Below are positions 28,544-56,573 of a stretch of DNA of 64,000 nt, piece by piece. The notes below the pieces were generated by a model. That model was not told the origin of the DNA. It was given only the letters and a program-made list of their open reading frames with translations, and ran no database searches. This DNA comes from Planctomycetota bacterium (GTDB lineage: Bacteria > Planctomycetota > UBA8108 > SXIK01): NCBI GenBank assembly GCA_965223265.1, contig OZ244999.1:6528001-6592000 (forward strand), written 5' to 3'. The position numbers were made by a program, and so were the translations under genes. Position 1 is the first letter of the stretch. Every line of letters begins with the position of its first letter.

Positions 28544-28808
28544 ACTTCCCTCCTATCGGGTACTTGCTTCACACGACCGACGAAGAGTCGGCACTAGATC
28601 TTACGGTTTTCTTTCGTGCCAGAATCCGTCCGCCGCGGGTGAGACCGGGCGACACCATCTTATCCCACGCGCCAGCGGCTTCCAAGGTCGAATGGTAGGG
28701 TTTCCTCCAGCTTCTGGCAAGAGAATCAAGGTCTCCTGACTTGGCGCAGCGTAGACGGCCGCCACGACTCGTCGGGGAACCTCCCTCCACCGACCTCCCG
28801 TCGCCCTG

Positions 28809-30503: not shown

Positions 30504-30569
30504 GCCAATTCTCCTTGCTCTTTCTTACGAATGCTGCCCTGCGGGATGTCGCGCTCGCCTTGCATCTGA

Positions 30570-32243
30570 TCAGTCGGCGCGGTGGGTGATCCTCAGAACT
30601 TCTTGAAACGTGGTGATTCCCGCCAGCGCTTTGCGCACGGCGTCTTCCTGGAGACTCGTCATTCCCTCCGACCGCGCCTTGGCGCGCAGCTCCTGCGTTG
30701 GCTTCATTTCGAATGCCATTTCGCGCAGATCGCCAGTCATCTCCATGAGCTCGTAGGCCCCGCGCCGTCCACGGTAACCGGCGTTGCCGCACGCCTGACA
30801 TCCGCCAGGCTCGAAAACAGTGGAGCCCTCAAGATCGGCACGCGTGATGCCGACTTGCGTCAACTCCGTATCTGACGGCTCATAAGGTTGCTTACACTCC
30901 GGGCACAAAATGCGGATCAAACGCTGAGCCATGATAGCCATGACCGCGGAGGCGACGAGGAACGGCTTGACGCCCATGTCGATCAGACGTGTCAACGCAG
31001 ACGGTGCGTCATTGGTGTGCAGCGTGCTGAACACAAGGTGTCCGGTGAGTGCCGCCTGGATGGCGATATCGGCAGTCTCTTGGTCGCGAATCTCTCCGAC
31101 GAGAATAATGTTTGGCGCCTGCCGCATCATGGCGCGCAGGATGCGCTGGAACGTTAGCCCGATTTCGTGGCGCACTTCGGCCTGATTGATCCCCGCCAAG
31201 TTGTACTCGATGGGGTTCTCGGCCGTGATGATCTTGACGTCCGGGCGGTTCAGTTTTTTGAGCGCCGCGTAAAGCGTTGTGGTCTTTCCCGATCCGGTCG
31301 GGCCGGTGACCAAAAAGATTCCCGTCGGGCGCTTAATGATCTTCTCAAAACGGTTGTAGTCGGATTCGTGAAACCCGAGCTCTTCGAGATCGACAAGACT
31401 CTTCTCCTTGTCGAGGATACGCATGACGACACTTTCGCCGTGGCGCGCAGGGAGAGCCGAGACGCGAAGATCGATCTCACGTCCGTGCAAATGGATCTTG
31501 ATACGACCGTCCTGTGGACGCCGCTTCTCGGCCATGTCCATGTCGGACATGATCTTGATGCGCGAAAGGATCGGGCCCTGAAGCTTCTTCGGCGGATTCT
31601 CCTTCTCTATGCAGACGCCGTCGACGCGGTATCGAATGCGGACGCGCTTCTCGAACGGCTCGACGTGAATATCGCTGGCGCGCTCCTTGAGCGCATTCGA
31701 AATGAGCTGCGTGACATACTTGATGACCGGAGCGTCGTCTTCAGCTGAGCCTTCCCCGGCGTACTCGTGTCTCCCCACCTGGACTTCGTCGTCGCCTAAG
31801 ACTTCGCCGAGATTGCCGGAAAGGCGGTAGTACTGATCGAGCGACTCTTCAATCTCCTCAGGCGTCGAAATCGCCGCTTCGACCTCGGTGTTGAGCAGAA
31901 AGCGAAGATTGTCGAGCACCATGTAGTCGAGACCCGACATGGCGACGTAGAGACTGCCGTTTTTCCGGGCAACGGGGACGATGCTGTTCTCAAGCGCGAC
32001 CTCCTTGGGTACGAGCGCGATGACATCGCGAGCCACCTCCCCTTTCGACAGGTTCGCGAACGGCAAGTCCCAATGTTTCGCGAGGGCACGACTGACCTGC
32101 TCCTGGGAGCAGACCTCCTGCTTGACGAGCGCTTCGCCGATGCGGCAGTCGTTCGTCTCCGCGTATTGCGCCGCCTTTTCGAGCTGTTGGTCCGACGCGG
32201 CACCCATCGCCTTGAGAATCTGACCAACCGATTTCTTATTCAA
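30570..32243 (-). CDS. pilB: Second PilB/GspE ATPase
   Basis: GPTGSGKTTT, ENPIEY, MRQAPN, STLHTND, CPEC...CQAC. Confidence 0.85.
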   Translation of the reverse strand: MNKKSVGQILKAMGAASDQQLEKAAQYAETNDCRIGEALVKQEVCSQEQVSRALAKHWDLPFANLSKGEVARDVIALVPKEVALENSIVPVARKNGSLYVAMSGLDYMVLDNLRFLLNTEVEAAISTPEEIEESLDQYYRLSGNLGEVLGDDEVQVGRHEYAGEGSAEDDAPVIKYVTQLISNALKERASDIHVEPFEKRVRIRYRVDGVCIEKENPPKKLQGPILSRIKIMSDMDMAEKRRPQDGRIKIHLHGREIDLRVSALPARHGESVVMRILDKEKSLVDLEELGFHESDYNRFEKIIKRPTGIFLVTGPTGSGKTTTLYAALKKLNRPDVKIITAENPIEYNLAGINQAEVRHEIGLTFQRILRAMMRQAPNIILVGEIRDQETADIAIQAALTGHLVFSTLHTNDAPSALTRLIDMGVKPFLVASAVMAIMAQRLIRILCPECKQPYEPSDTELTQVGITRADLEGSTVFEPGGCQACGNAGYRGRRGAYELMEMTGDLREMAFEMKPTQELRAKARSEGMTSLQEDAVRKALAGITTFQEVLRITHRAD

Positions 32244-34421: not shown

Positions 34422-35744
34422 GTGGAAAAGTCCGAAACTGGCTCGGCCGAACTCCTGGCTGACGACCTCGAGGTCACTACCACCGTCTACGAGTTCGCGG
34501 ATGGAAGAATCAGTCGCTCGATTCATGGCCCGCTCTGCCTCCTTGAAATCGTTGGGACCTATACGGCGCCCCTCGGCAAAGAGCTCGAGCGCCTGGCGGT
34601 GTGGCAAGGCGATCTCGGAATCGTCTTCGGCGAGATCAAGGTCAACCCCCGAACCAAACGCCGGTTTGACGGCACCATGGTCGCCCTCCTGAGCAACATT
34701 TCAACTCGCCGCAACGCGAGTGGTCGCAGCCTCTCGCTTTGCCAACCACCGAGCGAGTTGGTCGACGCTCTGAAACTCGCTGGCACGGAGATGCGGTTCG
34801 ACATCATCAGCGCCGAGGAAGTCGAAGATTGGGCAGAGAGGACACGCGGAAGGAGTCCGAAGACACCGACTGAAACCTCTCCCAACTCAAATCTCACCGA
34901 CGACGCGCAAGCCCCAACGGGCGAGGCGACCACCGCGCGCCGGCGCATCCGACGGTTCAATCAATCACTCAAACGCACCGCAAAACTGGAGCATGGGCTG
35001 GATGTCGCGGCCCGTTACGTCGAGCGATTCCTCCCTCGTCATGCTCCCAAGGTCTCCGGCTATGAGTTCGCCCACGTCTATCGTACGTCGGAGAAGGTCG
35101 GCGGCGATTTCTTCGATTTCATCCCACTTGAAGGAGGACGACTAGGCATCGTGATCGGCGACGTGTCGGGCCACGGAATCGACGCGGCTCTGCTCATGGG
35201 AATCTCAAAGAAGGTCCTGCGCATTCGCGCTACTGACGACGCAAGCCGATCGCCCCACGAGGTCCTTTGCACGGTGAGCCGGGACATCAGCGATGATTTC
35301 GAGCGCTCGAGCTTCGTCACCGCAGTCTACGGCATCCTTGACCCGCCAAGCGGCCGCTTCGTTTACGCGCGGGCCGGACATGAAAACCCGATCGTGGTCT
35401 CGCCCCGCGACGGGCGCGTACAGACCGTCGCCTCCCGCGGCGCCCCGCTAGGGCTTGACCAGGTGTGCGATCTCCCTGGCTTGCTGGAACAGGCCGAGCT
35501 CAACCTAGCGCCTGGGGAACTCCTTGTGCTCTCGACCGACGGACTCCCCGAGACACGCAACGACAGAGGCGCAACCTTCAGCCGTGGTCGCGCCGCCTAT
35601 GCACTCTCTAAGGTGCCGGAAAACGCCAACTGCCAAGAAGCACTCGATGTTCTCGCCGATTCCCTCGACGAGTTCTCCGGCGACGCGCCACAAGAAGACG
35701 ATCTGACCGTGCTGGTGGTCAAGCGGTCGGTTATCGGCTCATAG
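34422..35744 (+). CDS. PP2C/SpoIIE-family Ser/Thr phosphatase with STAS-like N-terminus
   Basis: VGGDFFD, IGDVSGHG, RAGHE, STDGLPE, QEDDLT. Confidence 0.88.
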   Translation: MEKSETGSAELLADDLEVTTTVYEFADGRISRSIHGPLCLLEIVGTYTAPLGKELERLAVWQGDLGIVFGEIKVNPRTKRRFDGTMVALLSNISTRRNASGRSLSLCQPPSELVDALKLAGTEMRFDIISAEEVEDWAERTRGRSPKTPTETSPNSNLTDDAQAPTGEATTARRRIRRFNQSLKRTAKLEHGLDVAARYVERFLPRHAPKVSGYEFAHVYRTSEKVGGDFFDFIPLEGGRLGIVIGDVSGHGIDAALLMGISKKVLRIRATDDASRSPHEVLCTVSRDISDDFERSSFVTAVYGILDPPSGRFVYARAGHENPIVVSPRDGRVQTVASRGAPLGLDQVCDLPGLLEQAELNLAPGELLVLSTDGLPETRNDRGATFSRGRAAYALSKVPENANCQEALDVLADSLDEFSGDAPQEDDLTVLVVKRSVIGS

Positions 35745-35846: not shown

Positions 35847-38800
35847 GTGGCTTTCAGAGGCGACGTTTCCCAGATCCCCCTGTCCAACATCGTTCAAGCT
35901 CTGATGATGAACGGGCAGGAAGGCGTGCTAACTCTTGAAGGCGACCGCTTCGGCGCCCGCCTCTGCATGCTCAAGATCGGAATCCGACCTCTGAACCATC
36001 AGCAACAGCCGCCCGATCTTCTGCGGCACATTTTGCTGAAACAAAAGCTACTGACGGAGTCGCAGTTCCAGAACATATTCTCGACATGGGTGCCGGGAAC
36101 CTCCTATCCCGGCGACTACCTGATCAATCGACGGATTCTCAAGCCCGAAACGGTTCACACCGAGCTTCGCAAGCAGCTCGAGGATTTCATCTTTCAGATC
36201 TTCTTGGAGCCGCGACTCAAGTACGAGTTCATAGCGGGAGAAGATAGCACCAGTTTTGAGCTCTTCTCACCGGACGGTCTTGGAGAGTCGCTCATCTACA
36301 ACACGAACGGCGTCCTCATGGAGACCGTTCGGCGACAGGATGAATGGAACCGCTTCCGCGAAGTGATCGCAGCTCCGCAGGAGATCTACAATCTCGATAA
36401 GGGGGCTAAGATCAATGCGGAGGAATTTGGAGTTCCTTCTCAGCGTGTGGAAGAAGTCCAACGATTGATCGATGGTTCTAGTAGCGTCGAGCAGGTGATC
36501 GCCCGATCAATCTACAGCCCGTTCGACGTCTACGAAGTACTATTCCACTTCCACAATCGGGGCTTGATCAGGCAACTCGACTTAGGCGAAAAGAAGAGAC
36601 TCGCTCAGCGTCTGAGCAAATCTCTCCGTCCACACGACTCGATCTCGATCTACCAGAGCCTGCTGCTGGACGACCCCGGCAACGTCGGAATCCGCAAGAA
36701 GCTGATCGGGTTGCTGCACAAAAACGGCGCCTCGCAAGCCGAGTTGGTCGAGCAATACTCAAAGCTGGCAGCCGTTTTGGAGGAAGAGGACCCCGAGCAA
36801 GCCGGCGAATGCCTCCGCAAAGTTCTTGCGATCGAACCTCGCAATCTCGCCGCCCTTGACCAGTTGTTCGACCTCCACATCGCAGCCGGCCACCAACGCG
36901 AAGCCGCACAGGTCATGCGCACGCTCGTGAGCGTAGCGCAGGAAGACCTCGACTCGCAAGCCGCCATCGAGCTGCTCTACAAGTTGGTGAACTATTTCCC
37001 CGAAGACGTGACCCTCTTCCATCAACTGGCAGAGATCCTCGCGGACACCAACAACATCGACGAAGCGGTGTCTTGCTTGAAGTCCGTTGCGGAGGTGTAT
37101 CACCGCCGCAAGGACTACCAGAAGCTGCGCAAGACGTACGAAAAGATCAGCCGCCTACGTCCTGAAGAAGGCGCGAAGCTTAGGAAGCTGAAAGACATTG
37201 AGAAGCGCACGGAGCGCTCCAAGGGACAACTCGTCAAGTTCGCATCAATCACCCTGGTCGTTGGCTTGCTGGCAGGGTTCGCGAGCGTCGCTGCCATGCA
37301 TGAGCTGCGTGCACGACAGCTGTATCGAGAGGTCGTTCAATCTGTCTCAACCATGACGGAACTTGAGGAATACCAGCAGGCCGAGCGACTATTGGCCGAT
37401 TTTCGCTCGACGTTTCCATTCTCAAGCGTTCGCAGTGAGGCCTACGCCCTTGAACTCGAATTGGGCACGCTTCGAGAACAACAGACGGTGGCTGACCGGG
37501 AAAAAGAGAAGAGTCGGACGTTCGAGGAGCGCTCCAAGTTCACGAAGGTCAAAATCAAATATAAAGAACGAGAGTATCTCGAGGCTCACGAGATTCTTGA
37601 AACTCTCGACCCCAAGCTTCTCTCGGTCAAGGCGCAGAGAGAGGTCGAAAGCATTGCCGCGTTGATCGAGGAGCACTTCGCAGTTGCGGAGGAGACGTGG
37701 AAGCGCGCCGAACTGGCGTTCGAGAACGGAGACTACGCGACCGCACACAAGTTTTCGAGATCCATCGTCCTCGATGGAACAAGCTCCCCGACCGCCGAGC
37801 ACGTTCGGATACCCGTCTACGTGGAGACCATTCCGCCTGGCGCGGAGGTACTCGTCGCCGGCGAAATCGTTGGTAATACTCCGTTGGCGCTCCGCTTCAT
37901 GCCGAAAAGCAAGATTCCGTCTGTCGAGATTCGGAAACTCGGATACGAAAGCAGAAACCTCGACGAACTGGAGATCGACGAACAACCGTTCAATCCACTG
38001 ACGACAGCGAGTTTGCGGATCGAGCTGCCCAAATCAATCGAATGGAGCTTCGACTCCCACGGCCCGATCGAAGGATTCCCTGTGGCGGCGGACGGCCGCG
38101 TGTTCTTCGGAAACCGATCGGGGAGTGTCTACGCACTGAAGCTCGATTCGCGTCAAGAGGTTTGGAGGTTCGAGGTCGACTTCCGCATGGACGTGACAGG
38201 TGGCATCAACACATGGAATCAACTCATCTACTTTGGTTCGGCGAACGGATACTTGTACGTCCTCAACGCAACCAACGGCCAACTGCTCCAAAAGGTTGGA
38301 GCTTCTCGGAACATGCTTCCGGTGAAAGAAGCGCCCTCGAGAGTGAACGCCGAAGGCGTGACGTTCGTCAATTGCGGTGGCAAGACCCTCTCCGCGATTA
38401 AGCTGACAACTGGCAAATTCGCGTGGCCGAGCGTTTCGACTCAACGCCGCCAATTCGTCGGCACACCGATGCTCCGAGAATCCTCTTGCATCGTCATCAC
38501 GTCGAGTGGTGAGGCTGTTGAGTTTTCTCAACAGACGGGCAAACGACTGGTGACGCATTCAGTGACGTCGGCCCCAGTTTCGCTGTCGGGAGCCATGGTC
38601 GGTCAACGTTTGATCGTATGTGACGGTGCGCACAAGGTCGTCGTCTACGACGTCGAGAAGAGATCCACGAAGTGGACGTTCGACTGCGGTGCCAAGATCA
38701 CGGCGCCACCGACCGTCGACGCCGACTACGTGGTTGTCGCGACGGCGGCTCGGCAGCTGATATGCCTCGGGGAGGATGGCCAAAAGCTGTGGACCATCAC

Positions 38801-39029
38801 GACCGAACACCCGATCACGACCGCCGGAACGATTTTCAAGAGTCTGCTGATTGTCGGGTCGTCGAGCGGAGAGCTCCTCTGCGCCGATCTCCTAACAGGT
38901 CGGAAGATGTGGACCTATAAGACGAGCGGCTTTCCGACGCACGGCATCACAGCGCGTGGCGCTGTGGACGATGGACGAATCTATATCGGAGCACAGGACG
39001 GTGCGTTCTACTGCGTCACTGCGGAGTAA
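35847..39029 (+). CDS. DUF4388 (PATAN-like)-TPR-TM-PEGA-PQQ-like beta-propeller protein
   Basis: FRGDVSQIPLSNIVQALMMNGQEGVLTL and LMETVRRQDEW (DUF4388); TPR repeats; TM segment near aa 466-485; ETIPPGAEVLVAGEIVGNTP (PEGA); repeated W-x-F/Y propeller blades. Confidence 0.8.
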   Translation: MAFRGDVSQIPLSNIVQALMMNGQEGVLTLEGDRFGARLCMLKIGIRPLNHQQQPPDLLRHILLKQKLLTESQFQNIFSTWVPGTSYPGDYLINRRILKPETVHTELRKQLEDFIFQIFLEPRLKYEFIAGEDSTSFELFSPDGLGESLIYNTNGVLMETVRRQDEWNRFREVIAAPQEIYNLDKGAKINAEEFGVPSQRVEEVQRLIDGSSSVEQVIARSIYSPFDVYEVLFHFHNRGLIRQLDLGEKKRLAQRLSKSLRPHDSISIYQSLLLDDPGNVGIRKKLIGLLHKNGASQAELVEQYSKLAAVLEEEDPEQAGECLRKVLAIEPRNLAALDQLFDLHIAAGHQREAAQVMRTLVSVAQEDLDSQAAIELLYKLVNYFPEDVTLFHQLAEILADTNNIDEAVSCLKSVAEVYHRRKDYQKLRKTYEKISRLRPEEGAKLRKLKDIEKRTERSKGQLVKFASITLVVGLLAGFASVAAMHELRARQLYREVVQSVSTMTELEEYQQAERLLADFRSTFPFSSVRSEAYALELELGTLREQQTVADREKEKSRTFEERSKFTKVKIKYKEREYLEAHEILETLDPKLLSVKAQREVESIAALIEEHFAVAEETWKRAELAFENGDYATAHKFSRSIVLDGTSSPTAEHVRIPVYVETIPPGAEVLVAGEIVGNTPLALRFMPKSKIPSVEIRKLGYESRNLDELEIDEQPFNPLTTASLRIELPKSIEWSFDSHGPIEGFPVAADGRVFFGNRSGSVYALKLDSRQEVWRFEVDFRMDVTGGINTWNQLIYFGSANGYLYVLNATNGQLLQKVGASRNMLPVKEAPSRVNAEGVTFVNCGGKTLSAIKLTTGKFAWPSVSTQRRQFVGTPMLRESSCIVITSSGEAVEFSQQTGKRLVTHSVTSAPVSLSGAMVGQRLIVCDGAHKVVVYDVEKRSTKWTFDCGAKITAPPTVDADYVVVATAARQLICLGEDGQKLWTITTEHPITTAGTIFKSLLIVGSSSGELLCADLLTGRKMWTYKTSGFPTHGITARGAVDDGRIYIGAQDGAFYCVTAE

Positions 39030-39233
39030 GCCCCCGTACGTGAGAGCGAATCCGCTCTTGCGTATCGCTCGCCGGTACACGGCTTCACCGTTTTCGGACG
39101 ATGCAGGCCTCTTGTAACGCACCGATTTGCCGGCTCAAACCGTCCATCCTATTCTCACTTGGATACATGAGCTAAAGAACCCCCGACGAACCGATCGAAG
39201 AAACGGTCAGACTCAACTCAGGAAATAAGCCCC

Positions 39234-40292
39234 GTGTTCTCACTCTTCTCTGCACTCCTAAACACATACCGTCGCAAGCAACTCGAAGCTGCCTACGACA
39301 GATACAAGGCGTCGCCTGGGGCCCAAGAGAGCATCCGTCTGTCACGTTTATTGCTCGCCACGGGTCGAGGGTATCAAGCCGTCAAAGTCATCTCCGAAGC
39401 CAAGCGGCAATACCCCGATCACGCAGGGGTCTTGAAGCAGCACAAACGAACCAAGATCCGCCAGGCGATCGCGTCGCTCAATCGAATCGACCGGCTTCTT
39501 GCACGGGACCGCAGCTTAAGACTCTTGTGCAAAGCGTCGGATTTGGCGTGCGCTCAAGGCGACTACGCGAAAGCAGAACGCTACGCGGAGGAAGCCGTCC
39601 AGGCCTTCCCGGAAGATTGGCAATCGCATTTCGCAATGGGAAAGCTCTTCTTTCACCGTTTCAACGCCACGCGTGACACTGAGGACCAAGAGCGAGCTCT
39701 GTCGTCTCTCGACGAAGCTTATCAGTTGAACTCGGAAGAATACGACGTTCTCCTGCTGCTCGGCTTGACGCTTGCGAGAGCCGGTGAGTACGCCGCCGCC
39801 CGTGACGTCACGAACCTGATCCTCGAGATCGAACCGGACGATATTAAAGCGTCCCAACTTCTTGACTACGTCGAGCAGTCGCTGCGTCGAGCCTCTTCAG
39901 CTCCTGCCGCAATTCAGACCGAAGAGCGCGTCGTTTCGGACGTCGACACGGACGTCCTGTTGGAACGCCTCCAAGACATTGAAGGTGTCGTCGGCCTCTA
40001 TCTCTTCGACTCCGAAGGCAACTTGGCGACTACGTTCGCCAAGGAGAACCAGACGTTTGCCTTCTCCGATTCTCACTCGCCGATGGATGCCATGCTCAAG
40101 ACGTGCCATCTGGACGTCTCCCGCATTGGTCTCGGGAGTTTTCGTTCTTGCCTGATCTGCGGCGAAGGCTGGCAAACGATCGTGCGCTCTTTCGAGAGCG
40201 TTCAAGTGATCGGGTTCTTCGAGCAGTACCCGCACGGAGAGGCACTCGAACAAGAAATCGACGATATCGTGCGAGCCTCAGCCGTTGCGTAG
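39234..40292 (+). CDS. TPR protein with C-terminal roadblock/LC7-like domain
   Basis: TPR helices, then LLERLQDIEGVVGLYLFDSEG, typical of the start of a roadblock fold. Confidence 0.7.
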   Translation: MFSLFSALLNTYRRKQLEAAYDRYKASPGAQESIRLSRLLLATGRGYQAVKVISEAKRQYPDHAGVLKQHKRTKIRQAIASLNRIDRLLARDRSLRLLCKASDLACAQGDYAKAERYAEEAVQAFPEDWQSHFAMGKLFFHRFNATRDTEDQERALSSLDEAYQLNSEEYDVLLLLGLTLARAGEYAAARDVTNLILEIEPDDIKASQLLDYVEQSLRRASSAPAAIQTEERVVSDVDTDVLLERLQDIEGVVGLYLFDSEGNLATTFAKENQTFAFSDSHSPMDAMLKTCHLDVSRIGLGSFRSCLICGEGWQTIVRSFESVQVIGFFEQYPHGEALEQEIDDIVRASAVA

Positions 40293-40376
40293 GGCATTGA
40301 CGATAGTACTGCCGATCCCAGACCTCAGATTCGATAGATAACGTCACAGCGGACAAACGGTAAAGAAAGCCACACC

Positions 40377-40727
40377 ATGCAAGAGATACTCACAAAGCTC
40401 AACGATAGAGCCGACGTCTTAGGCAGCATGGTCATCACACCTGACGGAATCACTGTGGCGACGGCCCTGCACTCCGACCTCGACGAGGAGACGGTCGCAG
40501 CGTTCGCCTCCTCACTTCTTGTTACGCTCAAGAAAAGCCTTTCGGATCTGGAAACTGCCGGAACGCTCTCCTTCTGTACGCTCAATTCGACGGAAGGAAA
40601 ACTCGTCTTCTTTGACATGAAAAACTCTTATCTCGTGGTGGTGACGAAGCCGAATACTCAGATTGCAAGTCGCATCGTCGCAATCGAACAAGCCATCGAC
40701 GAGATTCAGAACCGCCGGGTCGCATAG
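40377..40727 (+). CDS. Roadblock/LC7 domain protein (MglB/MglC-like)
   Basis: MQEILTKLN...VLGSMVITPDGITVA...EETVAAFASSL. Confidence 0.85.
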   Translation: MQEILTKLNDRADVLGSMVITPDGITVATALHSDLDEETVAAFASSLLVTLKKSLSDLETAGTLSFCTLNSTEGKLVFFDMKNSYLVVVTKPNTQIASRIVAIEQAIDEIQNRRVA

Positions 40728-40757
40728 ATCGGGAGTAGCACTGGAGCATAACACGTT

Positions 40758-41777
40758 ATGGTACAAATCAACTTTGCTCTAAAAGAAGTCAACTGCAAGA
40801 TCGTCTACTACGGACCCGGCCTGAGTGGAAAGACGACGAACCTCGAAGTCATCCACAGCAAGGCCCCAAAGACGAACGTTGGCGAGTTGACCTCGATTGC
40901 GACCGAAGGCGACCGAACTCTGTTCTTCGATTTTCTCCCGCTAAGTCTCGGCTCGGTTGCTGGAATGACGACGAAGTTCCAGATCTACACCGTGCCGGGC
41001 CAAGTCTATTACAACTCGACGCGCAAGCTCGTTCTTCAGGGAGCTGACGGAATCGTTTTCGTCGCCGATTCCCGACGCGGAAAGATGGACGAGAATCTCG
41101 AGTCTCTCTCCAATCTAATGGAGAATCTCGAAGAGTACGGCATGAACGTCAACACGCTCCCCTTGGTCATGCAGTACAACAAGCGCGATCTCCCAGACGT
41201 CTACGCCGTCGAGGAGCTCGAAGAGAAACTGAATCACCTCAACACGCCTCACTACGAGGCGGTGGCCGTTACCGGCGAAGGAGTCTTCCCAACGCTGAAG
41301 AAGCTCTCCCAAATGGTTCTGGAGAACCTCAACAAACAGCAAGGGTCGACCGTAGTGAAGGTCCCGAAGAAACAGGTCGAAGCCAAGGAGCCTGTCGCGG
41401 TCGGCGCGCCCGCACGCGCTGCGGCGAACACCAAGCAGAGCTCGAATCGACCTCGAACCGCGGCAGCCGCGTCGGCTGGCGGTGCTGGCGGACGCGCAGG
41501 CAGCGTCGTCCGGGAGTCCGTGACGTCGTCGCCAGGAGTTAAGCAGATCGAACGCAAGACTCCCGCAGCCAACGAATCGGGTGTCCAAACTCGTCAAAAG
41601 AAGCGACCGAGCACGGTCCAGAATCGAACACGAAAAGCCGGCTCTAGCCGAAAACAAACGCCGCCAAAGAAAAAGAGTTCGGCCGGCATTTGGGTCGTCG
41701 TAGTGATCTTGACTCTGGCAGCCGCCGGTGCTGGTTTGTACTTCAGCGGCGTTCTTGACTCCGTCTTGGGTAAATGA
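40758..41777 (+). CDS. mglA: MglA small GTPase with C-terminal linker and transmembrane anchor
   Basis: NCKIVYYGPGLSGKTTNL, DRTLFFDFLPL, YTVPGQV and QYNKRDLP closely match Myxococcus MglA; C-terminus KKKSSAGIWVVVVILTLAAAGAGLYF. Confidence 0.92.
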   Translation: MVQINFALKEVNCKIVYYGPGLSGKTTNLEVIHSKAPKTNVGELTSIATEGDRTLFFDFLPLSLGSVAGMTTKFQIYTVPGQVYYNSTRKLVLQGADGIVFVADSRRGKMDENLESLSNLMENLEEYGMNVNTLPLVMQYNKRDLPDVYAVEELEEKLNHLNTPHYEAVAVTGEGVFPTLKKLSQMVLENLNKQQGSTVVKVPKKQVEAKEPVAVGAPARAAANTKQSSNRPRTAAAASAGGAGGRAGSVVRESVTSSPGVKQIERKTPAANESGVQTRQKKRPSTVQNRTRKAGSSRKQTPPKKKSSAGIWVVVVILTLAAAGAGLYFSGVLDSVLGK

Positions 41778-41874
41778 GAACAACTAAAACGTTGTCGCTC
41801 CGGTCAGAGATCTTCATCTCTCACGTGACAACAGATTTCTAAGTGAGCTTCCTTAGCTCAGGAGGTGGGCCATC

Positions 41875-42381
41875 ATAACCGACAGTGACAATATCAGAGA
41901 AAAACGCCTCGTCTTCTACAAAGACGACATTGACAAGATCAATGGCATCCTCAAGGAGTTCCTCAATCTTTCAGATTGCAAATGCAACATCTTGATTGAT
42001 AAGGAAGGTCACCTTGTGACCAAGGCGGGAAGCACGGACGACTTCGACATGCAGGCCGTCTCCGCTCTTGTTGCTGGAAGTTACGCCGCGACTCGCGAAA
42101 TGGCACGTCTCCTGGGAGAGGACGAATTCTCCGTGCTTTTTCACCAAGGGCGCAAAGACAACATCCAGTTGACACTTGTCGGCGACCGCACGATCTTAGC
42201 GACCGTATTCGACGAACGCACGACGATCGGCATGGTGCGGCTCTACGCCAAAGAAGCGGCGGAAAAGTTGCAGCAGATCTTTGGAGAAATCTCGAAGCGA
42301 GGCGACGACGGCACGAAAGCTCTGGGCAAAGAGTTTTCCGAATCCGCCAAGAATCAGCTCGACACTTTCTTCGCCGATTAA
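41875..42381 (+). CDS. mglB: MglB roadblock protein (GTPase-activating partner), non-canonical start
   Basis: LVFYKDDIDKIN...LIDKEGHLV...SALVAGSYAATREMARLLGEDEFSVLFHQG resembles MglB. The frame is open from 41857; AGGAGGT precedes ATC (41872) and ATA (41875). Confidence 0.85.
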   Translation: MTDSDNIREKRLVFYKDDIDKINGILKEFLNLSDCKCNILIDKEGHLVTKAGSTDDFDMQAVSALVAGSYAATREMARLLGEDEFSVLFHQGRKDNIQLTLVGDRTILATVFDERTTIGMVRLYAKEAAEKLQQIFGEISKRGDDGTKALGKEFSESAKNQLDTFFAD

Positions 42382-42441
42382 GGCCGCAGGGCAGAACCGC
42401 AAATCGTTCCTACATCTGCCCTGCGCTGGCCGCACCCGTTC

Positions 42442-42747
42442 TCAACGGAGTTGAGGCGTGTCCACGTCATCGTTGACTGGCATCACCGGCCGCGACGAGA
42501 CGTCGGCTTCGCGATCGGCGAAATCCGCTGCGGCCTGGGCGATCTCGCCGAGGCATTTGAAGCTGAGAAAGAGCGCCACGCCACCGATAATCCAGATGAC
42601 GAGACTCAGCAAGAACAGAGACGTCGAGCGAAACTCTCCCTGCCGCCAGAGCTGAGCGGTCAAACCGATGCCCACCGCGACGAGCAGTACTTCTAGATAA
42701 GCCCCGACGATCATAAGATTCGCGAGCGATCGAAGCGGCGAACGCAT
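42442..42747 (-). CDS. Small two-TM hypothetical membrane protein
   Basis: Two hydrophobic segments; GGAG upstream of the ATG. Confidence 0.55.
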   Translation of the reverse strand: MRSPLRSLANLMIVGAYLEVLLVAVGIGLTAQLWRQGEFRSTSLFLLSLVIWIIGGVALFLSFKCLGEIAQAAADFADREADVSSRPVMPVNDDVDTPQLR

Positions 42748-42876
42748 CTCCGGGCCCTCCTCGAGCCCTCCCCATGGCGCCTGCCCACCGCGTCGATGGA
42801 ACGTCTCGCGCCGGAGACTTCTCTGAGGCCTTAGCTTGCAGCTGGACGCCGTGGCTCCGCGGGAGCCGCGCCGCCC

Positions 42877-45453
42877 TCAGACGTCGTCTTCTTCAAGATC
42901 TTCGTCGTCCTCGAGATCTTCCTCGTCCTCGAGATCTTCCTCGTCCTCGAGATCTTCCTCGTCCTCGAGATCTTCCTCGTCCTCGAGATCTTCCTCGTCC
43001 TCGAGATCTTCCTCGTCCTCGAGATCTTCCTCGTCCTCGAGATCTTCCTCGTCCTCGAGATCTTCCTCGTCCTCGAGATCTTCCTCGTCCTCGAGATCCT
43101 CCTCGTCTTCGAGGTCCTCGTCGTCCGACAGATCTTCCTCGTCCTCAAGACCCTCGTCGTCTTCCGCCAACCCGGCGACGACTGAATCTCCATCGTCGGA
43201 GCGCAGCAGCACCTCCAGTCGTGTGGCGGCTGGTGCTGAAGCGCCGCCAAAGGCGATCCACGCGAAACGCCGTAGAGCCGGATCTTCTTCCGCCATGCCA
43301 TCCTGGATAGCGCTGAGAACACGACCCGACGCTCCTCCGCTGCCACGCAGCACTCTCCCAAGCGCGTCCATCGCCGCAGCACGGATTTCCACTGAGTTGT
43401 CTTGGTTGGAGTACACGCTCGCCAGCTCCTCTGCGGCTGACTCGGCACCCATGCGCCCGAGAGCTACCAAGCTCGGAAGCCGAATGCTGTCGGGACGATC
43501 GTGGATCACCCGCGTCAACGCCGCCGCGGTGTCTTCAACGGGAATCAGCGTGTGAGACGCCGATGACAGTTCCGCCAACGTCGACGCAGCATCAACCGCG
43601 ATCGCTGTCGCCTCTGCCTGGGCTCCCCTCTCAGAGCGGGCGATGCGCTGATAGATGAGTTCCCTGAGACCTTGAGTGTCAATGTTCTCTGAAATCACGG
43701 TCACTTTCCGCTCTTCACTCTCGTGGAGCGATCGCGCTTCAGCGAGATCGGCGGACGGTACCACGACGACGACTGGGACGTTCGCCGTCCGGTAGTTGTT
43801 CCGCAGCTGCTGAACAAAATGCGTTACGGGAGCAACGCCGCGCGGCGAACTCTCAAGTCTGACGCTCAGGTCAACCAACACGGCATCAGGTGGCGTGCCC
43901 GTCACGGCCGCATAGCCCTCTTCGAACGACTTCGCGGCGCCGAGAGAATCAATGTTCAGCTCCCGTAGCATGCGGTCCATGCGATTCGCGAGGGCTTGGT
44001 CGGCCATAATCCGCTGCACCACACGCGAGCCACCCGTCTGGACGGCCTCCGCCAAAATGCTCGCGACGTCGGCGCCGGCATCGAAGTCCTCCGCTGGGTT
44101 CCACTCCGCAATCACGGTCGCCGCAGCAAATCGAACGAGCCTCGAGTCGCTCCGAAGAGCCTGCGTCACTTGATCAGGAACCGAGCCGCGGCTTGGCCCG
44201 ACGGCACGAACCGTCTGGAGCAACCTACGCGCCACGAGCGGACGCGGCCGCTTCGTGTTGAGTGCCACCCCGAGCGCCTTATAGAGAACGCGCGCGGGGG
44301 TCGCCAGCAAGCGAAGCCGCAGGAAATTGTTTACGTACGGTCGCTGCGACTCGAGAATCTGGGCGATCGCAGGTTGGGCGGAGCCTACATTCTGGTCGTA
44401 CTCAAGCAGCATCGCCGCGTCCACGCAGGCGAGGAGAACACGTGCCTCTTCGTAGTCGGGGTCGAGCTGCAGCGCTGCTTCCAAGGACTGCTTCGCCATC
44501 ACATCGCTGAGCTGGAACTGAGCCACCTCGACCGCCGCGATTTGCTCGCCATCCTGCATGAACACCTGCGGGATACCTTGCCGTTGATCGAACAAATTAC
44601 GGCTCGGACGGTAGAAGTAGTTGTAGGCGTTCAGCAGATAGTACTGCTTGGCCGAACGACCGCTACGATACTGTCGAAAGCCCGACAGACCGCCGATCGA
44701 TTCGCTGGCGACCCCGCGGACTTCAGCGCTCGCGTCGGATTCTGCCATCGCACTCAGCGCCGCCAGCGAGCTCGGATGCTTCAATTGCCCGAGAAGCGTA
44801 GCAACGTTGCGTCGCACCAATTCGTTCGGAAACGTCGTCGCGGCTTGTAAGACCTGGATCACTCCGATGTCGAGGTCGGCGAGACTGTGAAGCCACAGAA
44901 GAGCAACCGTCCGGTTGCTCGCATCGGCGTGACCAAGCCGCGCGACGAGTGCTGGAGCTAAAGAGCGGCCGTAGGCGACGGACGCTTCCGCGCGGGCGCG
45001 AAGCGCTCCACCCTGGGCCAGCACTTCCTCCACCACACTCTCGACGGCTTCACGATCCGCGCGACGCGCGCGCCCGATCTCAGCACTGCGCGACAAAAGC
45101 GTCAATGCAACGCCGCGGGCCTGTGGGTCCTCGCTCGCGGCCATCCGCAGCACTTTCTTCATGCGACCGTCGCGGAGCGAGTTGTAGAGACTTTCGCTCG
45201 ACGGATCTTGCTGCAGGATTCGCTCCAACCTCTCCGCCGCGGAGCGGAGATTGCCGGCGTCGAATTCTTCCAGCGCGCGTGCGACCTGGTCTCCCACCTG
45301 GGCGTCACATGGTCGGCTCGCGACCACAGAGGCAACAAAAACAACAGCAATCAAAGCGCTTGGGAGCGCACGCCGGGCGAAACGGCTCTCGATACCCATG
45401 ACCTCAAAACCCTTTCTTACGATGATGAGCAAGGCGACGGGTTCCGTTCGCAC
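42877..45453 (-). CDS. Exported HEAT-repeat protein with receiver-like domain and poly-acidic (DEEDLE)n tail
   Basis: Signal/TM N-terminus; HEAT-like motifs (VRRNVATLLGQL, VRFAAA, IRAAAMDALG); PPDAVLVDL REC-like segment; acidic tail. Start uncertain. Confidence 0.75.
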   Translation of the reverse strand: MRTEPVALLIIVRKGFEVMGIESRFARRALPSALIAVVFVASVVASRPCDAQVGDQVARALEEFDAGNLRSAAERLERILQQDPSSESLYNSLRDGRMKKVLRMAASEDPQARGVALTLLSRSAEIGRARRADREAVESVVEEVLAQGGALRARAEASVAYGRSLAPALVARLGHADASNRTVALLWLHSLADLDIGVIQVLQAATTFPNELVRRNVATLLGQLKHPSSLAALSAMAESDASAEVRGVASESIGGLSGFRQYRSGRSAKQYYLLNAYNYFYRPSRNLFDQRQGIPQVFMQDGEQIAAVEVAQFQLSDVMAKQSLEAALQLDPDYEEARVLLACVDAAMLLEYDQNVGSAQPAIAQILESQRPYVNNFLRLRLLATPARVLYKALGVALNTKRPRPLVARRLLQTVRAVGPSRGSVPDQVTQALRSDSRLVRFAAATVIAEWNPAEDFDAGADVASILAEAVQTGGSRVVQRIMADQALANRMDRMLRELNIDSLGAAKSFEEGYAAVTGTPPDAVLVDLSVRLESSPRGVAPVTHFVQQLRNNYRTANVPVVVVVPSADLAEARSLHESEERKVTVISENIDTQGLRELIYQRIARSERGAQAEATAIAVDAASTLAELSSASHTLIPVEDTAAALTRVIHDRPDSIRLPSLVALGRMGAESAAEELASVYSNQDNSVEIRAAAMDALGRVLRGSGGASGRVLSAIQDGMAEEDPALRRFAWIAFGGASAPAATRLEVLLRSDDGDSVVAGLAEDDEGLEDEEDLSDDEDLEDEEDLEDEEDLEDEEDLEDEEDLEDEEDLEDEEDLEDEEDLEDEEDLEDEEDLEDEEDLEDEEDLEDDEDLEEDDV
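42884..43165. repeat. 18-bp coding tandem repeat CTCGAGATCTTCCTCGTC
   Basis: About ten identical copies plus degenerate flanking copies; encodes DEEDLE on the minus strand. Confidence 0.95.
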
Positions 45454-47950: not shown

Positions 47951-48874
47951 TCAGCTCAAGAGTTCGGCTTGGTACTTCTTCAACTGATTCTTAAGCCGAA
48001 AGATGATACGGGAGTGAAGCTGGCAGACGCGAGACTCGGAGAGATTCAGTGTCGCACCGATCTCGCGCATGGTGAGATCTTCGTAGTAGTAGAGAAGCAG
48101 GATGAGACGTTCCTTGCGACTCAACCCCTTCGTAATGAACTCCGTGATCTCCTTGCGTTTCAACTCGTACTCGGGATCGACGCCTTTCTTGTCCTCGAGG
48201 ACATCGATCTTGCGAAGCGTTTTCGATCCCTGATCTTCTTTCGTCTTGTCGGTCAAACTGACGATCGTGATCGCGCTCGCTTCGCGGATCAACTCGTGGT
48301 ACTCGTCGATCGAGATCTCGAGCGATTGGGCCATCTCCATGTCGGTCGGAACACGGCCGAGCTGGACCTCGAGAGTCTTCCACGTCGTCTCGATGCGATT
48401 TGCCTTATTGCGAACGATGCGAGGCACCCAGTCGAGCGAGCGTAACTCGTCGAGGATGGCGCCCCGAATGCGTGTCGTGCAGTAGGTCTCGAACTTGACG
48501 CCGCGGCTGAGGTCGTAGCCGTTGACGGCGTCCATCAAACCGAAAATACCGGCACTCGTAAGGTCATCGAGCTCAATATTCTGCGGCAGTTTCGCCAGCA
48601 GGCGCTCAGCGATGTATTTGACCAGCGGTAGGTATCGTTCGATGAGGATGTTGCGAAGTCGTTCGTCGCCTGTGCGTTTGAAATCGCGCCACACCTGCTC
48701 TATGTCGATGCCGGAATCTTTGACAGCGCGAGCGCCGCCTCGCTTCGTTGTCTTGGCGACGCGAGTCCGTGGCCTTGCGGGGCGCGAGGCCGCCAAGCGG
48801 CTCTTCCCCGGCTTCACAAGCGCACCGGCGGAAGTCGTTTCTCGAGTTCTCTTACGTTCTCTGGCTCCGCTCAC
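47951..48874 (-). CDS. fliA: RNA polymerase sigma factor FliA/WhiG (sigma28)
   Basis: FETYCTTRIRGAILDELRSLDWVPR, LYYYEDLTMREIG, SESRVCQLH; follows flhF-flhG. Confidence 0.92.
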   Translation of the reverse strand: MSGARERKRTRETTSAGALVKPGKSRLAASRPARPRTRVAKTTKRGGARAVKDSGIDIEQVWRDFKRTGDERLRNILIERYLPLVKYIAERLLAKLPQNIELDDLTSAGIFGLMDAVNGYDLSRGVKFETYCTTRIRGAILDELRSLDWVPRIVRNKANRIETTWKTLEVQLGRVPTDMEMAQSLEISIDEYHELIREASAITIVSLTDKTKEDQGSKTLRKIDVLEDKKGVDPEYELKRKEITEFITKGLSRKERLILLLYYYEDLTMREIGATLNLSESRVCQLHSRIIFRLKNQLKKYQAELLS

Positions 48875-49127
48875 CGCGGTTCCTCCACACTTCTTCCGAC
48901 CCGCTGCTGCGGTCCGGCACTCTTCTCAAGATCAGTCGGTCGAATGCGGCCCTCACGGTCGATTTGCACGTCGGTTGGTCAGGCCATCAATTTCGCGGCC
49001 CCCTCCTCCCTCGAATACAGTCGGGGCCAACTTCGCTTCTCTTCTCGCTGCGTTGACGCAGCAACCCAATCAAAAACGCTATTCGGCCGAGAAACTGAGT
49101 CTTCGACTCGAAGCGCCTCGTCGTAGG

Positions 49128-49976
49128 CTATTGACTCTTCATTCCATAGACGGCAGTTGCGAACTTACGAATGAACCCAGTCGCTGGTGCCTGCTCTGAG
49201 ACGATTTTCTCCGCAATCAGCCGAATCTTCCGGGCGGCCGACGACTTCGGTGAGCCGACGACGAACGGGACGCGCCGCCGAATCGCATGGCTGACGCGCT
49301 GATCCGTGGGAACAAAACCCAGACCATCGACTTCGAGCGATAGGAATTTCTGCGCCACCATCCGGATGCGCTCGAACACTCGCCCCGCTTCCCGAGCGTC
49401 CCGACACTGGTTGACGATCAATCGAATGCGTCCACGTCCCTTCTCTCTGGCCACCGCCTTGATCACCGCGTACGCATCGGTCATCGCGGTTGGTTCCGGA
49501 ATCGTGATAACCAACACCTCGTCAGATATCGCCGCAAACTGAACCACATTCTTCGAGATTCCCGCCGCCGTGTCGAAGATGACGACATCGAAGCTGCGAC
49601 CGAGATCCTGAAAGCCCTGCACGAGGAAGTCTCGCTCCGCTTGTTCCAAGTCCGAAATGTGTCTGACACCGGTACATCCGGAAAGGAGCGTGACGCCAAA
49701 GGGTGTTGGCACCAAGGTGTCGCGAACACTCGTTTCCCCTGAAAGAACATGGCCGAGGTTGTAGCGCGGCTGTACCGATAACATCACGTCGACGTTCGCT
49801 AGGCCAATGTCGAGATCGACGAGGGCAACGCGCTTGCCAAGCTGCACCAGCGAAACCGCCAAGTTGACGGCGCAACTCGATTTCCCGACGCCACCTTTGC
49901 CGCTCGCGACGGCCAAGAACTTCGCTCGCCCCTCCTCCCCTGCGACAAGGTCCCTCAGCTTCTTTGCCTGGTCCAT
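49128..49976 (-). CDS. flhG: MinD-like ATPase FlhG/FleN
   Basis: MDQAKKLR, SGKGGVGKS, DLDIGLANVD, PEPTAMTDAYA. Confidence 0.92.
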   Translation of the reverse strand: MDQAKKLRDLVAGEEGRAKFLAVASGKGGVGKSSCAVNLAVSLVQLGKRVALVDLDIGLANVDVMLSVQPRYNLGHVLSGETSVRDTLVPTPFGVTLLSGCTGVRHISDLEQAERDFLVQGFQDLGRSFDVVIFDTAAGISKNVVQFAAISDEVLVITIPEPTAMTDAYAVIKAVAREKGRGRIRLIVNQCRDAREAGRVFERIRMVAQKFLSLEVDGLGFVPTDQRVSHAIRRRVPFVVGSPKSSAARKIRLIAEKIVSEQAPATGFIRKFATAVYGMKSQ

Positions 49977-49985
49977 GTGGCACCT

Positions 49986-51179
49986 TCAATGAACTGCGTT
50001 CTTGAGCACAAGATCGGCAAGTCGTTCTGGATCGCCGGGCATGATGTCATCCGGGACATTTTGACCATCGGTGATGAATGACACGGGCCGTCCGATCGTA
50101 AAAAGCGCTTTCACGAGCGCGCCGAAGGAAACGGTCTCGTCGACCTTCGTCAGGATCACGGCGTCAAAATCGATCCCCATGAAGCGGTTCGCGATATTCT
50201 CCAGAGTCGAACCGTGAGTCGTGGTACTCAAGACGAGGTGCGTCTCGACATCCGGCAGCACGGATAGAAATCCTCTCAGCTCGGCCATCTTGAGTTCGTC
50301 GCGATGACTGCGGCCGGCGGAATCGATGAAAACAAGATCCACCTCTCGCTCGCGAAATTCATCGATAACATCGCTCAACTCCTGCGGCTGCGCGGCCACT
50401 GCCATTGGTAGCCCGATGATCTCCGCATACTTCTCCAACTGGTCGATCGCAGCGATACGGAACGTATCGAGCGTCACGAGACCAACCCGCATCCGTTCAT
50501 TGATCTTGGCCCGTGCAGCCAGCTTTGCGATGGTCGTTGTTTTGCCGACGCCGGTCGGGCCAACGAGTGCGATCAAACGCGGCTTGATCTTCTTGTTGAG
50601 GGGCGGGGACGGGAGAAAGAGCTGCGTCAACTGGGAATGGACGACTGAACGCACTCGCGCGGGCTCCGGAAATCCTTCCGGAATCTTCAGCGTCGCGATG
50701 TGCTGCGAGAGCCGATCAGCGATCTGGGGATCGACCTCCTTCGAGATCAGGAGCTCGTAGCATTCCGAGAGAAACGGATGGTCATACTTCTGAAGCCCGC
50801 CGGTGCGAGAGACAAACTCCCGGATTTCTTGGCGGATTTGACTCAGGGCGTTGGCGAATTCTTCGTACGACGCAGACGATTGATCTTCGCTTGCCTCGGT
50901 CGCTGGGGTCTCGACTGGAGCCGAGCCGTTCATGGTTTCCGCGCGACTGGGTACGATCTTCCGAGTTCGATTCAGATTCTCTCGCTTGACGTTCTCGATT
51001 CGAGATCGCGTGTCCGCAGCGAACACTTCGACCACCTCGCGACCGCCGAAGCCGAGAACCCCTCCACGCCGAAACGTCCGCGTCTTGACGATCATCGCGT
51101 CGCTCCCCAGCATGGTGCGAACCTTTTCTAAGGCCTCGTCCATGGTGGGGGCTTCGACTCTCGTGAGTCGAAAACTCAT
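49986..51179 (-). CDS. flhF: SRP-family GTPase FlhF
   Basis: GPTGVGKTTTIAKLAA, DTFRIAA, DSAGR, TKVDE, GQNVPDD. Confidence 0.93.
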   Translation of the reverse strand: MSFRLTRVEAPTMDEALEKVRTMLGSDAMIVKTRTFRRGGVLGFGGREVVEVFAADTRSRIENVKRENLNRTRKIVPSRAETMNGSAPVETPATEASEDQSSASYEEFANALSQIRQEIREFVSRTGGLQKYDHPFLSECYELLISKEVDPQIADRLSQHIATLKIPEGFPEPARVRSVVHSQLTQLFLPSPPLNKKIKPRLIALVGPTGVGKTTTIAKLAARAKINERMRVGLVTLDTFRIAAIDQLEKYAEIIGLPMAVAAQPQELSDVIDEFREREVDLVFIDSAGRSHRDELKMAELRGFLSVLPDVETHLVLSTTTHGSTLENIANRFMGIDFDAVILTKVDETVSFGALVKALFTIGRPVSFITDGQNVPDDIMPGDPERLADLVLKNAVH

Positions 51180-51274
51180 ACTCTCTTCCTCCTTTTGCTC
51201 GCTTTTCTGTCCACTGTTTTCATCGCTCAGCTTCGCGGCGACCTCCTACGCCCCACGACGATCGATATCGGCGG

Positions 51275-53413: not shown

Positions 53414-53455
53414 TTCTCTAGTGCGACGGACGTCAAACGCGTCCGACCGCAGGTG

Positions 53456-54223: not shown

Positions 54224-54322
54224 GTGGATTTCCTCGGTCGCAGAACTGCTCGAAGAGACGACCGTGCACCGAGCACCTCACGACAGCACCTAAAGTCAGA
54301 TCCACTCTTGTGCGGTGCGTTT

Positions 54323-55129: not shown

Positions 55130-55153
55130 GAAAAGACCTCGGCCCTACGCATC

Positions 55154-55435: not shown

Positions 55436-55452
55436 TCTTTCGACGCCACCCT

Positions 55453-56319: not shown

Positions 56320-56348
56320 TGTGTCTTCGCCGTTTGAATCCGGCACGG

Positions 56349-56528: not shown

Positions 56529-56573
56529 GAAACCTCAATTCAGCGATTGGATTGGCGCCCTTGAGATCCCGCG

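Follow-up and report, generated by a model that had tools for sequence, protein, structure and literature searches.

Introduction

MglA is the bacterial model for polarity control by a small GTPase, and mechanistic models of its action all take it to be soluble and to move back and forth between the cell poles and the cytosol. Among eukaryotic small GTPases, Rab, Ras, and Rho use a lipid anchor on a hypervariable linker to recruit effectors to membranes, Miro is large and multidomain with a C-terminal tail anchor, the transmembrane (TM) segment of SR-beta is N-terminal, and in Ragulator the membrane link of the Rag GTPases is made by lipidated LAMTOR1. Here we describe mglA-TM, an MglA gene whose product carries a predicted C-terminal membrane anchor. 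It lies in a 64,000-nt stretch of DNA from a Planctomycetota bacterium (assembly GCA_965223265.1, contig OZ244999.1, positions 6,528,001 to 6,592,000); this whole stretch is called the window below, and coordinates are given within it. To our knowledge, the determinants of polar budding and organelle placement in planctomycetes are largely unknown, and mglA-TM, if its product is indeed membrane-resident, would give this phylum a concrete candidate for a polarity regulator that can be tested genetically.

The characterized MglA proteins are short and soluble, as a preliminary description of the window, made from its sequence, had rightly stated. The Protein Data Bank (PDB) chains are 195-203 amino acids (aa) long, and Myxococcus xanthus MglA is diffuse in lipid-stabilized droplets while MglB sits at the lipid/water interface, according to the accessible part of PMC13408092. 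The main survey of prokaryotic small GTPases (Wuichet and Sogaard-Andersen 2014, PMC4316618) excluded sequences longer than 240 aa; as far as the available portion of that survey goes, it characterizes Group 1 MglA by an arginine finger next to the G2 threonine and by TVPGQ in place of DxxGQ, does not list Planctomycetes among the Group 1 phyla, and lacks the stem ‘planctomyc’ in its main text. The same portion reports PATAN genes beside Group 1 MglA genes, as well as the actinobacterial conservon, a membrane-associated complex with an MglA homolog and an MglB homolog. Asgard Rab-like proteins, per the available portion of PMC10933270, lack the C-terminal membrane-insertion extension of eukaryotic Rabs, and a self-anchored bacterial small GTPase is therefore a useful contrast to them. 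We found no description of a transmembrane or tail-anchored MglA in the full-text literature, a body of text that leaves most subscription journals outside its coverage. What is new here is an MglA that carries its own predicted membrane anchor, a form characteristic of Planctomycetota; the MglA family itself was already known. The interpretation of the tail as a membrane tether is well supported in silico, and its consequences for polarity dynamics are speculative.

The G domain of mglA-TM

The gene and its parts are as follows:

40758..41777, plus strand: mglA-TM, ATG start, 339 aa plus stop, MglA match at E 7.1e-73
40758..41342, plus strand: G domain, aa 1-195, from alignment to 5ymx_A, 6h17_A, and 3t12_A; folded in the AlphaFold2 model
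41343..41681, plus strand: basic linker, aa 196-308 (113 aa), 25 K+R against 5 D+E, predicted disordered by AlphaFold2
41682..41750, plus strand: predicted TM helix, aa 309-331, from hydropathy and an AlphaFold2 helix at 309-330
41751..41774, plus strand: short tail, aa 332-339 (8 residues), predicted to lie outside the cytoplasm

The window’s own genome, a single contig of 9.18 Mb, holds one MglA match, namely this gene. Over residues 3-197, gap-free alignments were obtained with the MglA proteins of M. xanthus (5ymx_A, E 7.1e-73) and Thermus thermophilus (3t12_A, E 4.7e-66); the runner-up solved families, Arf and archaeal Rab, reach only about 1e-5. Pfam returned only generic Arf, Gtr1/RagA, and Ras matches, and no specific NCBIfam model scored above its cut-off.

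For close homologs, we used the best 120 clusters at 90% identity, of which 114 are at least 300 aa long. The protein has a P-loop (G19-T26), D52-R53-T54-L55, T78-V-P-G-Q82 (including P80-G81-Q82), and N141-K-R-D144. In an alignment of 114 homologs, the P-loop and NKRD are invariant or nearly so, and D52-R53-T54-L55 and T78-V79-P80-G81-Q82 do not vary at all. The preliminary description’s reading of this region as an MglA G domain with its catalytic arginine and glutamine is thus borne out, the two residues being R53 and Q82.

As in the Group 1 MglA proteins of the survey, the arginine finger R53 adjoins the conserved G2 threonine T54, TVPGQ replaces DxxGQ in the G3 motif, and the gene is coupled to an mglB (Roadblock) gene. 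At 339 aa the product exceeds the survey’s size limit of 150-240 aa for a single-domain protein; because the 240-aa limit was a survey filter and not a biochemical criterion, we file mglA-TM as an MglA with an added module. Compared with the M. xanthus and T. thermophilus proteins, the likeness extends over the G domain from end to end, the arginine finger, TVPGQ, NKRD, and the adjacent mglB. In contrast, those proteins are soluble and 195-203 aa long, while mglA-TM adds 144 aa of linker, TM helix, and tail, and its locus has a second Roadblock gene upstream. Judged by its sequence, mglA-TM is a genuine Group-1-type MglA GTPase with intact catalytic motifs, and GTP binding and MglB-stimulated hydrolysis are its predicted activities.

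A basic linker and a C-terminal hydrophobic helix

Beyond the G domain, the protein continues as the preliminary description had outlined, with a basic linker (aa 196-308), three lysines (K304-K306) directly before the hydrophobic stretch at 309-331, and a tail of 8 residues. The top 19-aa Kyte-Doolittle window (311-329) scores 2.29, whereas the G domain does not exceed 1.15; when the tail was shuffled 5000 times, only 3 shuffles attained 2.29. The AlphaFold2 model, computed from the 114-sequence alignment, leaves residues 198-308 without secondary structure (means of 43-63 per 10-residue block in the predicted local distance difference test, pLDDT) and forms a helix at 309-330 with block means of about 94. 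Other hydrophobic segments are absent, as is a signal peptide; at its N-terminal end the protein has beta-1, a strand of the G domain. By a working definition, a tail-anchored protein has a single C-terminal TM segment, at most about 30 residues beyond it, and no signal peptide; mglA-TM has its TM segment at 309-331, 8 residues after it, and no second TM segment.

The tail also behaves as part of the gene. Logan contigs from 4 runs (2 samples of 1 study, possibly the source of the assembly itself) cover positions 40300-42400 with 0 differing letters and 0 gaps. They span the whole open reading frame (ORF) unchanged, and the junction near aa 195, where the preliminary description had asked whether a stop might lie, has none. 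Relative to the two nearest genomes, the difference in coding length is 39 nt for L002 and 48 nt for L003, each divisible by three. Conservation in the tail at the first, second, and third codon positions is 0.61/0.66/0.45 against L002 and 0.57/0.63/0.42 against L003; the third position is the least conserved, which argues for translation of the tail in this frame and for selection on it. Individual indels could not be placed in the linker, where the nucleotide sequence has diverged too far from those of L002 and L003.

An antisense ORF (41115-41783, minus strand, 222 aa) runs across the GC-rich part of the gene that encodes the linker. As conservation follows the sense frame, this ORF most likely results from base composition. 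Close relatives share a conspicuous conserved island in the linker, at about aa 250-270 (nt 41505-41567). We considered its pattern ‘SPGVK.IER’ as a phylum-wide binding motif and dropped it, as only some 46-49 of the 160 sequences have it, every one from close kin, and it is lineage-specific. A search of the ESM Atlas with the tail (aa 196-339) gave no usable match.

The tail across Planctomycetota

A C-terminal hydrophobic window of at least 1.4 is present in all 114 of the homologs of at least 300 aa among the best 120 clusters, so the check for a C-terminal TM segment in homologs comes out in favor of the tail. To place the gene in its phylum, we surveyed 401 Planctomycetota genomes with an MglA threshold of E 1e-30 or better. 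MglA was found in 226 of the 401 genomes, in 120 of the 244 genomes of high quality, and in 172 of 287 genera.

The best 30 phylum loci include 27 complete genes, every one of which ends in a TM segment; the other 3 genes leave their contig. Among 20 more distant loci, from other families, 15 are tail-anchored by the same features, 3 extend for 57-143 aa beyond their TM segment, and 2 lack a TM segment. The latter two end instead in a short basic amphipathic stretch; its hydrophobic moment is 0.80 in one (attained in 3 of 1000 shuffles) and 0.85 in the other (attained in 1 of 1000). The complete sampled genes of the phylum thus carry a TM segment in 45 of 47 cases and an amphipathic basic end in 2 of 47. 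When distinct long planctomycete sequences are counted, the TM segment is present in 157 of 160.

These 157 TM-bearing homologs share a pattern of charge and position. The mean net charge of the 15 aa before the helix is +3.45 (positive in 155 of the 157), the mean net charge beyond the helix is +0.27, and the charge before the helix exceeds that after it in 149. Past the best 19-aa window, the proteins continue for a median of 8 residues, with 15 or fewer in 151. The linker has a median length of 114 aa (range 82-290) and a positive net charge in 155; its sequence is not conserved phylum-wide. Since linker and TM sequences vary while hydrophobicity, position, and charge pattern are kept, the tail fits selection for membrane anchoring, and the replacement of the TM segment by an amphipathic end, or its extension, in some lineages suggests that membrane attachment is selected and not a particular sequence.

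On these sequences, the TM-tailed MglA is the common form in Planctomycetota and looks standard there. The preliminary description had treated mglA-TM as one odd gene; that view does not survive, as 45 of the 47 complete genes sampled across the phylum have this form. Its proposal of a C-terminal membrane tether stands as far as the single C-terminal helix with tail-anchor features is concerned, and needs widening in scope from one gene to the phylum.

In L035 and L038 (family f17) and L049 and L053 (family f26), 57-143 or more Pro/Ala-rich or acidic low-complexity residues follow the TM segment. The MglA proteins of these four loci would cross the membrane and expose a far-side tail, and would not be strictly tail-anchored.

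MglA outside the phylum

Among named genome records we found 80 loci, of which 5 are labeled Planctomycetota and 1 is labeled ‘bacterium’ and has a planctomycete-like tail; in these 6, the tails are of the TM type or the gene leaves its contig. The remaining 74 non-planctomycete loci include Gemmatimonadota, Acidobacteriota, Fibrobacterota, Myxococcota, and Desulfuromonadales. A TM tail was found in 0 of these 74, in which no window of an extension exceeds 1.29; sister phyla, Verrucomicrobiota among them, lay outside the search. The MglA of 57 of the 74 is about 191-210 aa long.

A quick maximum-likelihood tree of 130 G domains contains one split (support of 96 in the Shimodaira-Hasegawa-like approximate likelihood ratio test, SH-aLRT) that separates 56 planctomycete rows from 74 non-planctomycete rows. 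The former comprise 50 genes with a TM segment, 2 with an amphipathic end, and 4 cut by contig ends; none of the 74 others has a TM segment. On this tree, presence and absence of the TM segment require two changes. A single origin of the membrane anchor is consistent with these data and is not proven by them, because the tree is unrooted and L060 sits on a very long branch.

Gene neighborhood

The genes considered around mglA-TM are the following:

35847..39029, plus strand: membrane-spanning PATAN-type protein, 1060 aa, with Pfam matches to an N-terminal DUF4388 (PATAN-type), TPR, PEGA, and a PQQ-type beta-propeller
39234..40292, plus strand: TPR protein, 352 aa, with matches to Pfam TPR families
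40377..40727, plus strand: small Roadblock/LC7 protein, 116 aa, Pfam Robl_LC7 at E 1.8e-9, 30 nt upstream of mglA-TM
41872..42381, plus strand: mglB, encoding the putative Roadblock GTPase-activating protein (GAP), about 169 aa, 94 nt downstream of mglA-TM
42442..42747, minus strand: small hydrophobic protein, 101 aa, Kyte-Doolittle window of 2.57, no Pfam family
27320-32243, minus strand, upstream of the module: genes of type IV pilus type, one PilC-like and two for PilB-like secretion ATPases with MshEN domains
47951-57284, minus strand, downstream of the module: flagellar block of FliA (a sigma factor), FlhG, FlhF, FlhA, FlhB, FliP, and FliO

Translated from 41872, mglB gives a product whose residues 12-168 align to M. 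xanthus MglB (6izw_B) at E 9e-33; the alignment ends at residue 158 of the 167 in MglB, near its C-terminus. An AGGAGG stands at 41860-41865 and an ATC six bases later at 41872; the first ATG, GTG, or TTG comes only at 41992. Because the MglB-homologous N-terminus lies upstream of that codon, mglB probably starts at the non-canonical ATC 41872. At the homologous position, most of 46 related loci have ATG, GTG, or TTG, and five have ATC or ATT (L001, which is the window, L002, L003, L014, and L050); in L016 an ATT stands one codon upstream of it. Such a start might keep MglB levels low. Downstream of mglA, mglB is present in 46 of the 50 loci L001-L050, and 3 of the 4 exceptions leave their contig.

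The best PDB match of the 116-aa protein encoded upstream of mglA-TM is another Roadblock/LC7 protein (7yh1_D, E 3.5e-6). We also considered whether aa 235-352 of the TPR protein form a third Roadblock domain and dropped the idea, since BLASTP against the upstream Roadblock protein gave nothing significant (best E 0.076). In the PATAN-type protein, a TM window at about aa 465-483 (Kyte-Doolittle 2.1) lies between the DUF4388/TPR part and the PEGA/propeller part.

Gene order was compared in 20 phylum-wide loci of up to 20 kb, with which shorter loci agree. On the same strand as mglA, the upstream Roadblock gene is present in 17 of 20, mglB in 18 of 20, and the PATAN-type gene in 14 of 20; a homolog of the TPR protein lies upstream in 7 of 20, with weak E-values beyond close kin. 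As read from these sequences, conservation extends to the succession of Roadblock gene, mglA-TM, and mglB, which a PATAN-TPR-propeller gene often precedes.

Proposed mechanism and comparison with anchored GTPases

We consider it probable that mglA-TM is the GTPase of an MglA/MglB switch and that its own tail anchor keeps it permanently on the cytoplasmic membrane. The G domain would be cytoplasmic, held on the basic disordered linker of about 113 aa, with the single C-terminal helix in the membrane and about 8 residues on the far side, the topology of a tail anchor with its N-terminus inside. The charge bias of the TM-bearing homologs (149 of 157) matches the positive-inside rule for a cytoplasm-facing N-terminus, as a pattern of charge only. 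MglB from the downstream gene would act as the GAP for mglA-TM, and the second Roadblock protein, the TPR protein, and the PATAN-TPR-TM-PEGA-propeller protein would be likely co-regulators, effectors, or sources of envelope-side input. Anchoring would shift the GTP/GDP cycle from the cytosol into the plane of the membrane, such that MglA-GTP would recruit soluble effectors to the membrane instead of being recruited to a pole. The likely output would be the siting of polar envelope structures such as pili, a flagellum, or the bud site. This cellular output is suggested by analogy with M. xanthus, where MglA positions motility machines according to the accessible part of the literature.

If this is true, a phylum-wide orthologue of MglA is membrane-resident and the switch must work in two dimensions, which alters the options for GAP exclusion, effector recruitment, and relocation, and a natural bacterial counterpart of the anchored Rab, Ras, and Rho GTPases exists. 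With those eukaryotic proteins, mglA-TM shares a G domain, an unstructured variable linker (basic, compare the polybasic tails of Ras and Rho), and an anchor at the extreme C-terminus. It differs in that its anchor would be an encoded TM helix and not a prenyl or palmitoyl group, and in that its G domain belongs to the MglA family, so that the relationship is one of analogy and not orthology. Because the anchor would be a TM helix and not a lipid, membrane extraction of the kind performed by a guanine nucleotide dissociation inhibitor (GDI) is not expected.

The resemblance to Miro and SR-beta lies in a Ras-superfamily G domain held at the membrane by a single TM helix. Many homologs of mglA-TM bear the Joint Genome Institute (JGI) label ‘signal recognition particle receptor subunit beta’; nevertheless, we found no specific sequence relationship to either protein, with Pfam giving only the generic Arf, Ras, and Gtr1 matches. 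Rag-Ragulator and the conservon (CvnA-D) likewise combine a small GTPase with Roadblock-fold partners at a membrane. There, a partner provides the membrane link (LAMTOR1 or the CvnA sensor kinase), whereas mglA-TM would have its own anchor.

Several points weigh against the proposal of a permanently anchored switch. Six of the 120 close homologs listed are 200-267 aa long and have no TM segment; 3 of them have no contig record, and the others stop within the linker or in seemingly out-of-frame sequence. A genuine short form of MglA may nonetheless be among them. No MglA was found at E 1e-30 or better in 175 of the 401 sampled Planctomycetota genomes, and the protein is therefore neither universal nor essential in the phylum. 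The membrane insertion and orientation of the predicted helix are read from hydropathy, charge bias, and AlphaFold2, which are indirect. In distant loci, the TPR and PATAN matches have modest E-values and come from repeat-rich queries. Pilus and flagellar genes lie near mglA-TM only in the closest relatives: among the 20 twenty-kb loci, FliA and FlhG occur in 1, with one further weak FlhG-like match, and a T2SSE ATPase occurs in 1. As this proximity is limited to the nearest relatives, the functional link to those organelles is weak.

Alternative readings

A reading that overlaps with the anchored switch, and sharpens its input side, makes mglA-TM the output G protein of a trans-envelope receptor, in which the PATAN-type protein would sense an envelope or periplasmic cue and, with the Roadblock proteins, set the nucleotide state of MglA. 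The same-strand position of the PATAN-type gene upstream in 14 of the 20 loci is in its favor, as is the way in which that protein’s TM segment splits the cytoplasmic-type DUF4388/TPR part from the PEGA/propeller part, and precedents exist in the PATAN-MglA links and the conservon reported in the available portion of PMC4316618. Against this, 6 of the 20 loci have no detectable PATAN homolog within 10 kb, TPR or propeller repeats may account for the matches in distant genomes, and an interaction of the PATAN-type protein with MglA is purely hypothetical. We hold this reading as a tentative possibility, somewhat on the unlikely side.

The preliminary description had gone further and taken a permanent tether to imply fixed polarity or membrane remodeling and not oscillation; MglA would then be a static landmark in place of the pole-to-pole switch of Myxococcus. 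Planctomycetes in several orders bud at a pole and keep stable poles, which would suit a landmark, and the anchor is conserved across the phylum. A TM anchor would also remove the cytosolic pool that M. xanthus uses for fast relocation, going by the accessible part of PMC13408092. However, GTP cycling is expected of a module that retains every catalytic residue and a true MglB, and a single-pass anchor on a long flexible linker permits lateral diffusion, so that movement between membrane sites stays possible. There is no membrane-remodeling domain in the conserved neighborhood, and sequence carries no information on dynamics. A static landmark is therefore doubtful, and ‘fixed polarity rather than oscillation’ is speculation for mglA-TM.

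It would be bolder still, and in our view improbable, that Planctomycetota independently reached a eukaryote-style membrane-held GTPase and that the MglA-TM/Roadblock module serves as a switch for membrane-domain identity, a landmark for the bud or division site or for membrane invaginations and not for motility reversals, in cells without conventional FtsZ-based division.

The hydrophobic stretch might, finally, be no anchor at all and instead act as a protein-protein or oligomerization helix, a degradation tag, or a cleaved sorting signal. The case for insertion comes solely from the three indirect lines named above, and the helix is rich in small residues (consensus ‘AGAALYFSG’ in the 114-homolog alignment), which could mediate helix-helix packing. 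Nevertheless, a basic cluster before the helix is the reverse of the arrangement in sortase and PEP-CTERM signals, no N-terminal signal peptide is present, hydrophobic length and end position persist although the sequence itself drifts freely, and the amphipathic or extended forms in some lineages fit selection for membrane attachment. We regard a function other than anchoring as very unlikely.

That a sequencing or assembly error, or a miscall, fused mglA with a downstream gene for a small membrane protein is refuted: the sole hints of an artefact are the GC content of the linker (0.59-0.61 vs 0.52) and the spurious antisense ORF at 41115-41783, whereas the contigs from 4 runs are identical and gap-free, the architecture is repeated in 114 of 114 long homologs and 45 of 47 complete phylum loci, the length differences to L002 and L003 come in threes, and the third codon position is the least conserved.

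Other long forms of MglA

The 240-aa cut-off of the main survey removed not only the TM-tailed MglA but also at least two other long MglA classes. Like mglA-TM, these have an MglA G domain and a long variable C-terminal extension, and their endings differ from that of mglA-TM. The best 150 representatives at 50% clustering comprise 59 with a TM segment, 26 with a basic/aromatic end, and 65 with other ends.

The second long class, of about 290-670 aa, lacks a TM segment and terminates in a short motif of basic and aromatic residues of the ‘KKKGFF..LF’ type. Its members include P0154, P0165, P0166, P0168, P0171, P0174, P0177, P0178, P0184, P0192, P0199, P0200, P0212, P0265, and others, and the named loci with such an end are Fibrobacterota (L061, L066, and L092). 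The rule for this end fits 26 of 91 TM-less representatives against 4 of 1031 internal 20-mers. We take these ends to recall the amphipathic membrane-targeting end of MinD, a likeness that the pattern count supports only loosely. The hydrophobic moments of the three Fibrobacterota ends (11 residues at 100 degrees) are 0.37-0.44 and not significant, being reached by 592-858 of 1000 shuffles.

A third long class, of about 380-620 aa, shares a strand-like conserved C-terminal block, for example ‘...LRLKITLDVNLLP’ or ‘...VLKLRI...RAA’, in which we found no TM segment and no Pfam family match. It is represented by L082, L085, L101, L109, and L127 (Thermoanaerobaculia/Acidobacteriota), by L117, L063, and L090, and by many of P0185-P0270. 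Many of the 65 representatives with other ends carry the conserved block, and the named loci that have this block are from Acidobacteriota and allied groups. Thermoanaerobaculia records hold a 194-aa MglA as well as a long MglA, and the two fall in separate clades of the tree.

Further features of the locus

No Rfam family matched at 39000-43000, and a promoter and terminator scan between the genes of the module gave nothing usable, with terminator-like sites lying within ORFs (14 vs 8.4 expected). The 101-aa hydrophobic protein has homologs in L131, L132, and L135, all close kin, and its membership in the mglA-TM module is uncertain. A gene for a SpoIIE/PP2C-type phosphatase (34422-35744, plus strand) stands directly upstream of the PATAN-type gene and is kept in L131, L132, and L135; the phosphatase may provide a regulatory input to the module.

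At 42896-43161, an 18-nt tandem repeat of 14.8 copies encodes acidic ‘DEEDLE’ units on the minus strand. The ‘DEEDLE’ run forms the C-terminus of an 858-aa HEAT-repeat protein (ORF 42877-45453) that has a hydrophobic, signal-like segment at its N-terminus, and homologs of this protein adjoin the MglA module in L132-L135.

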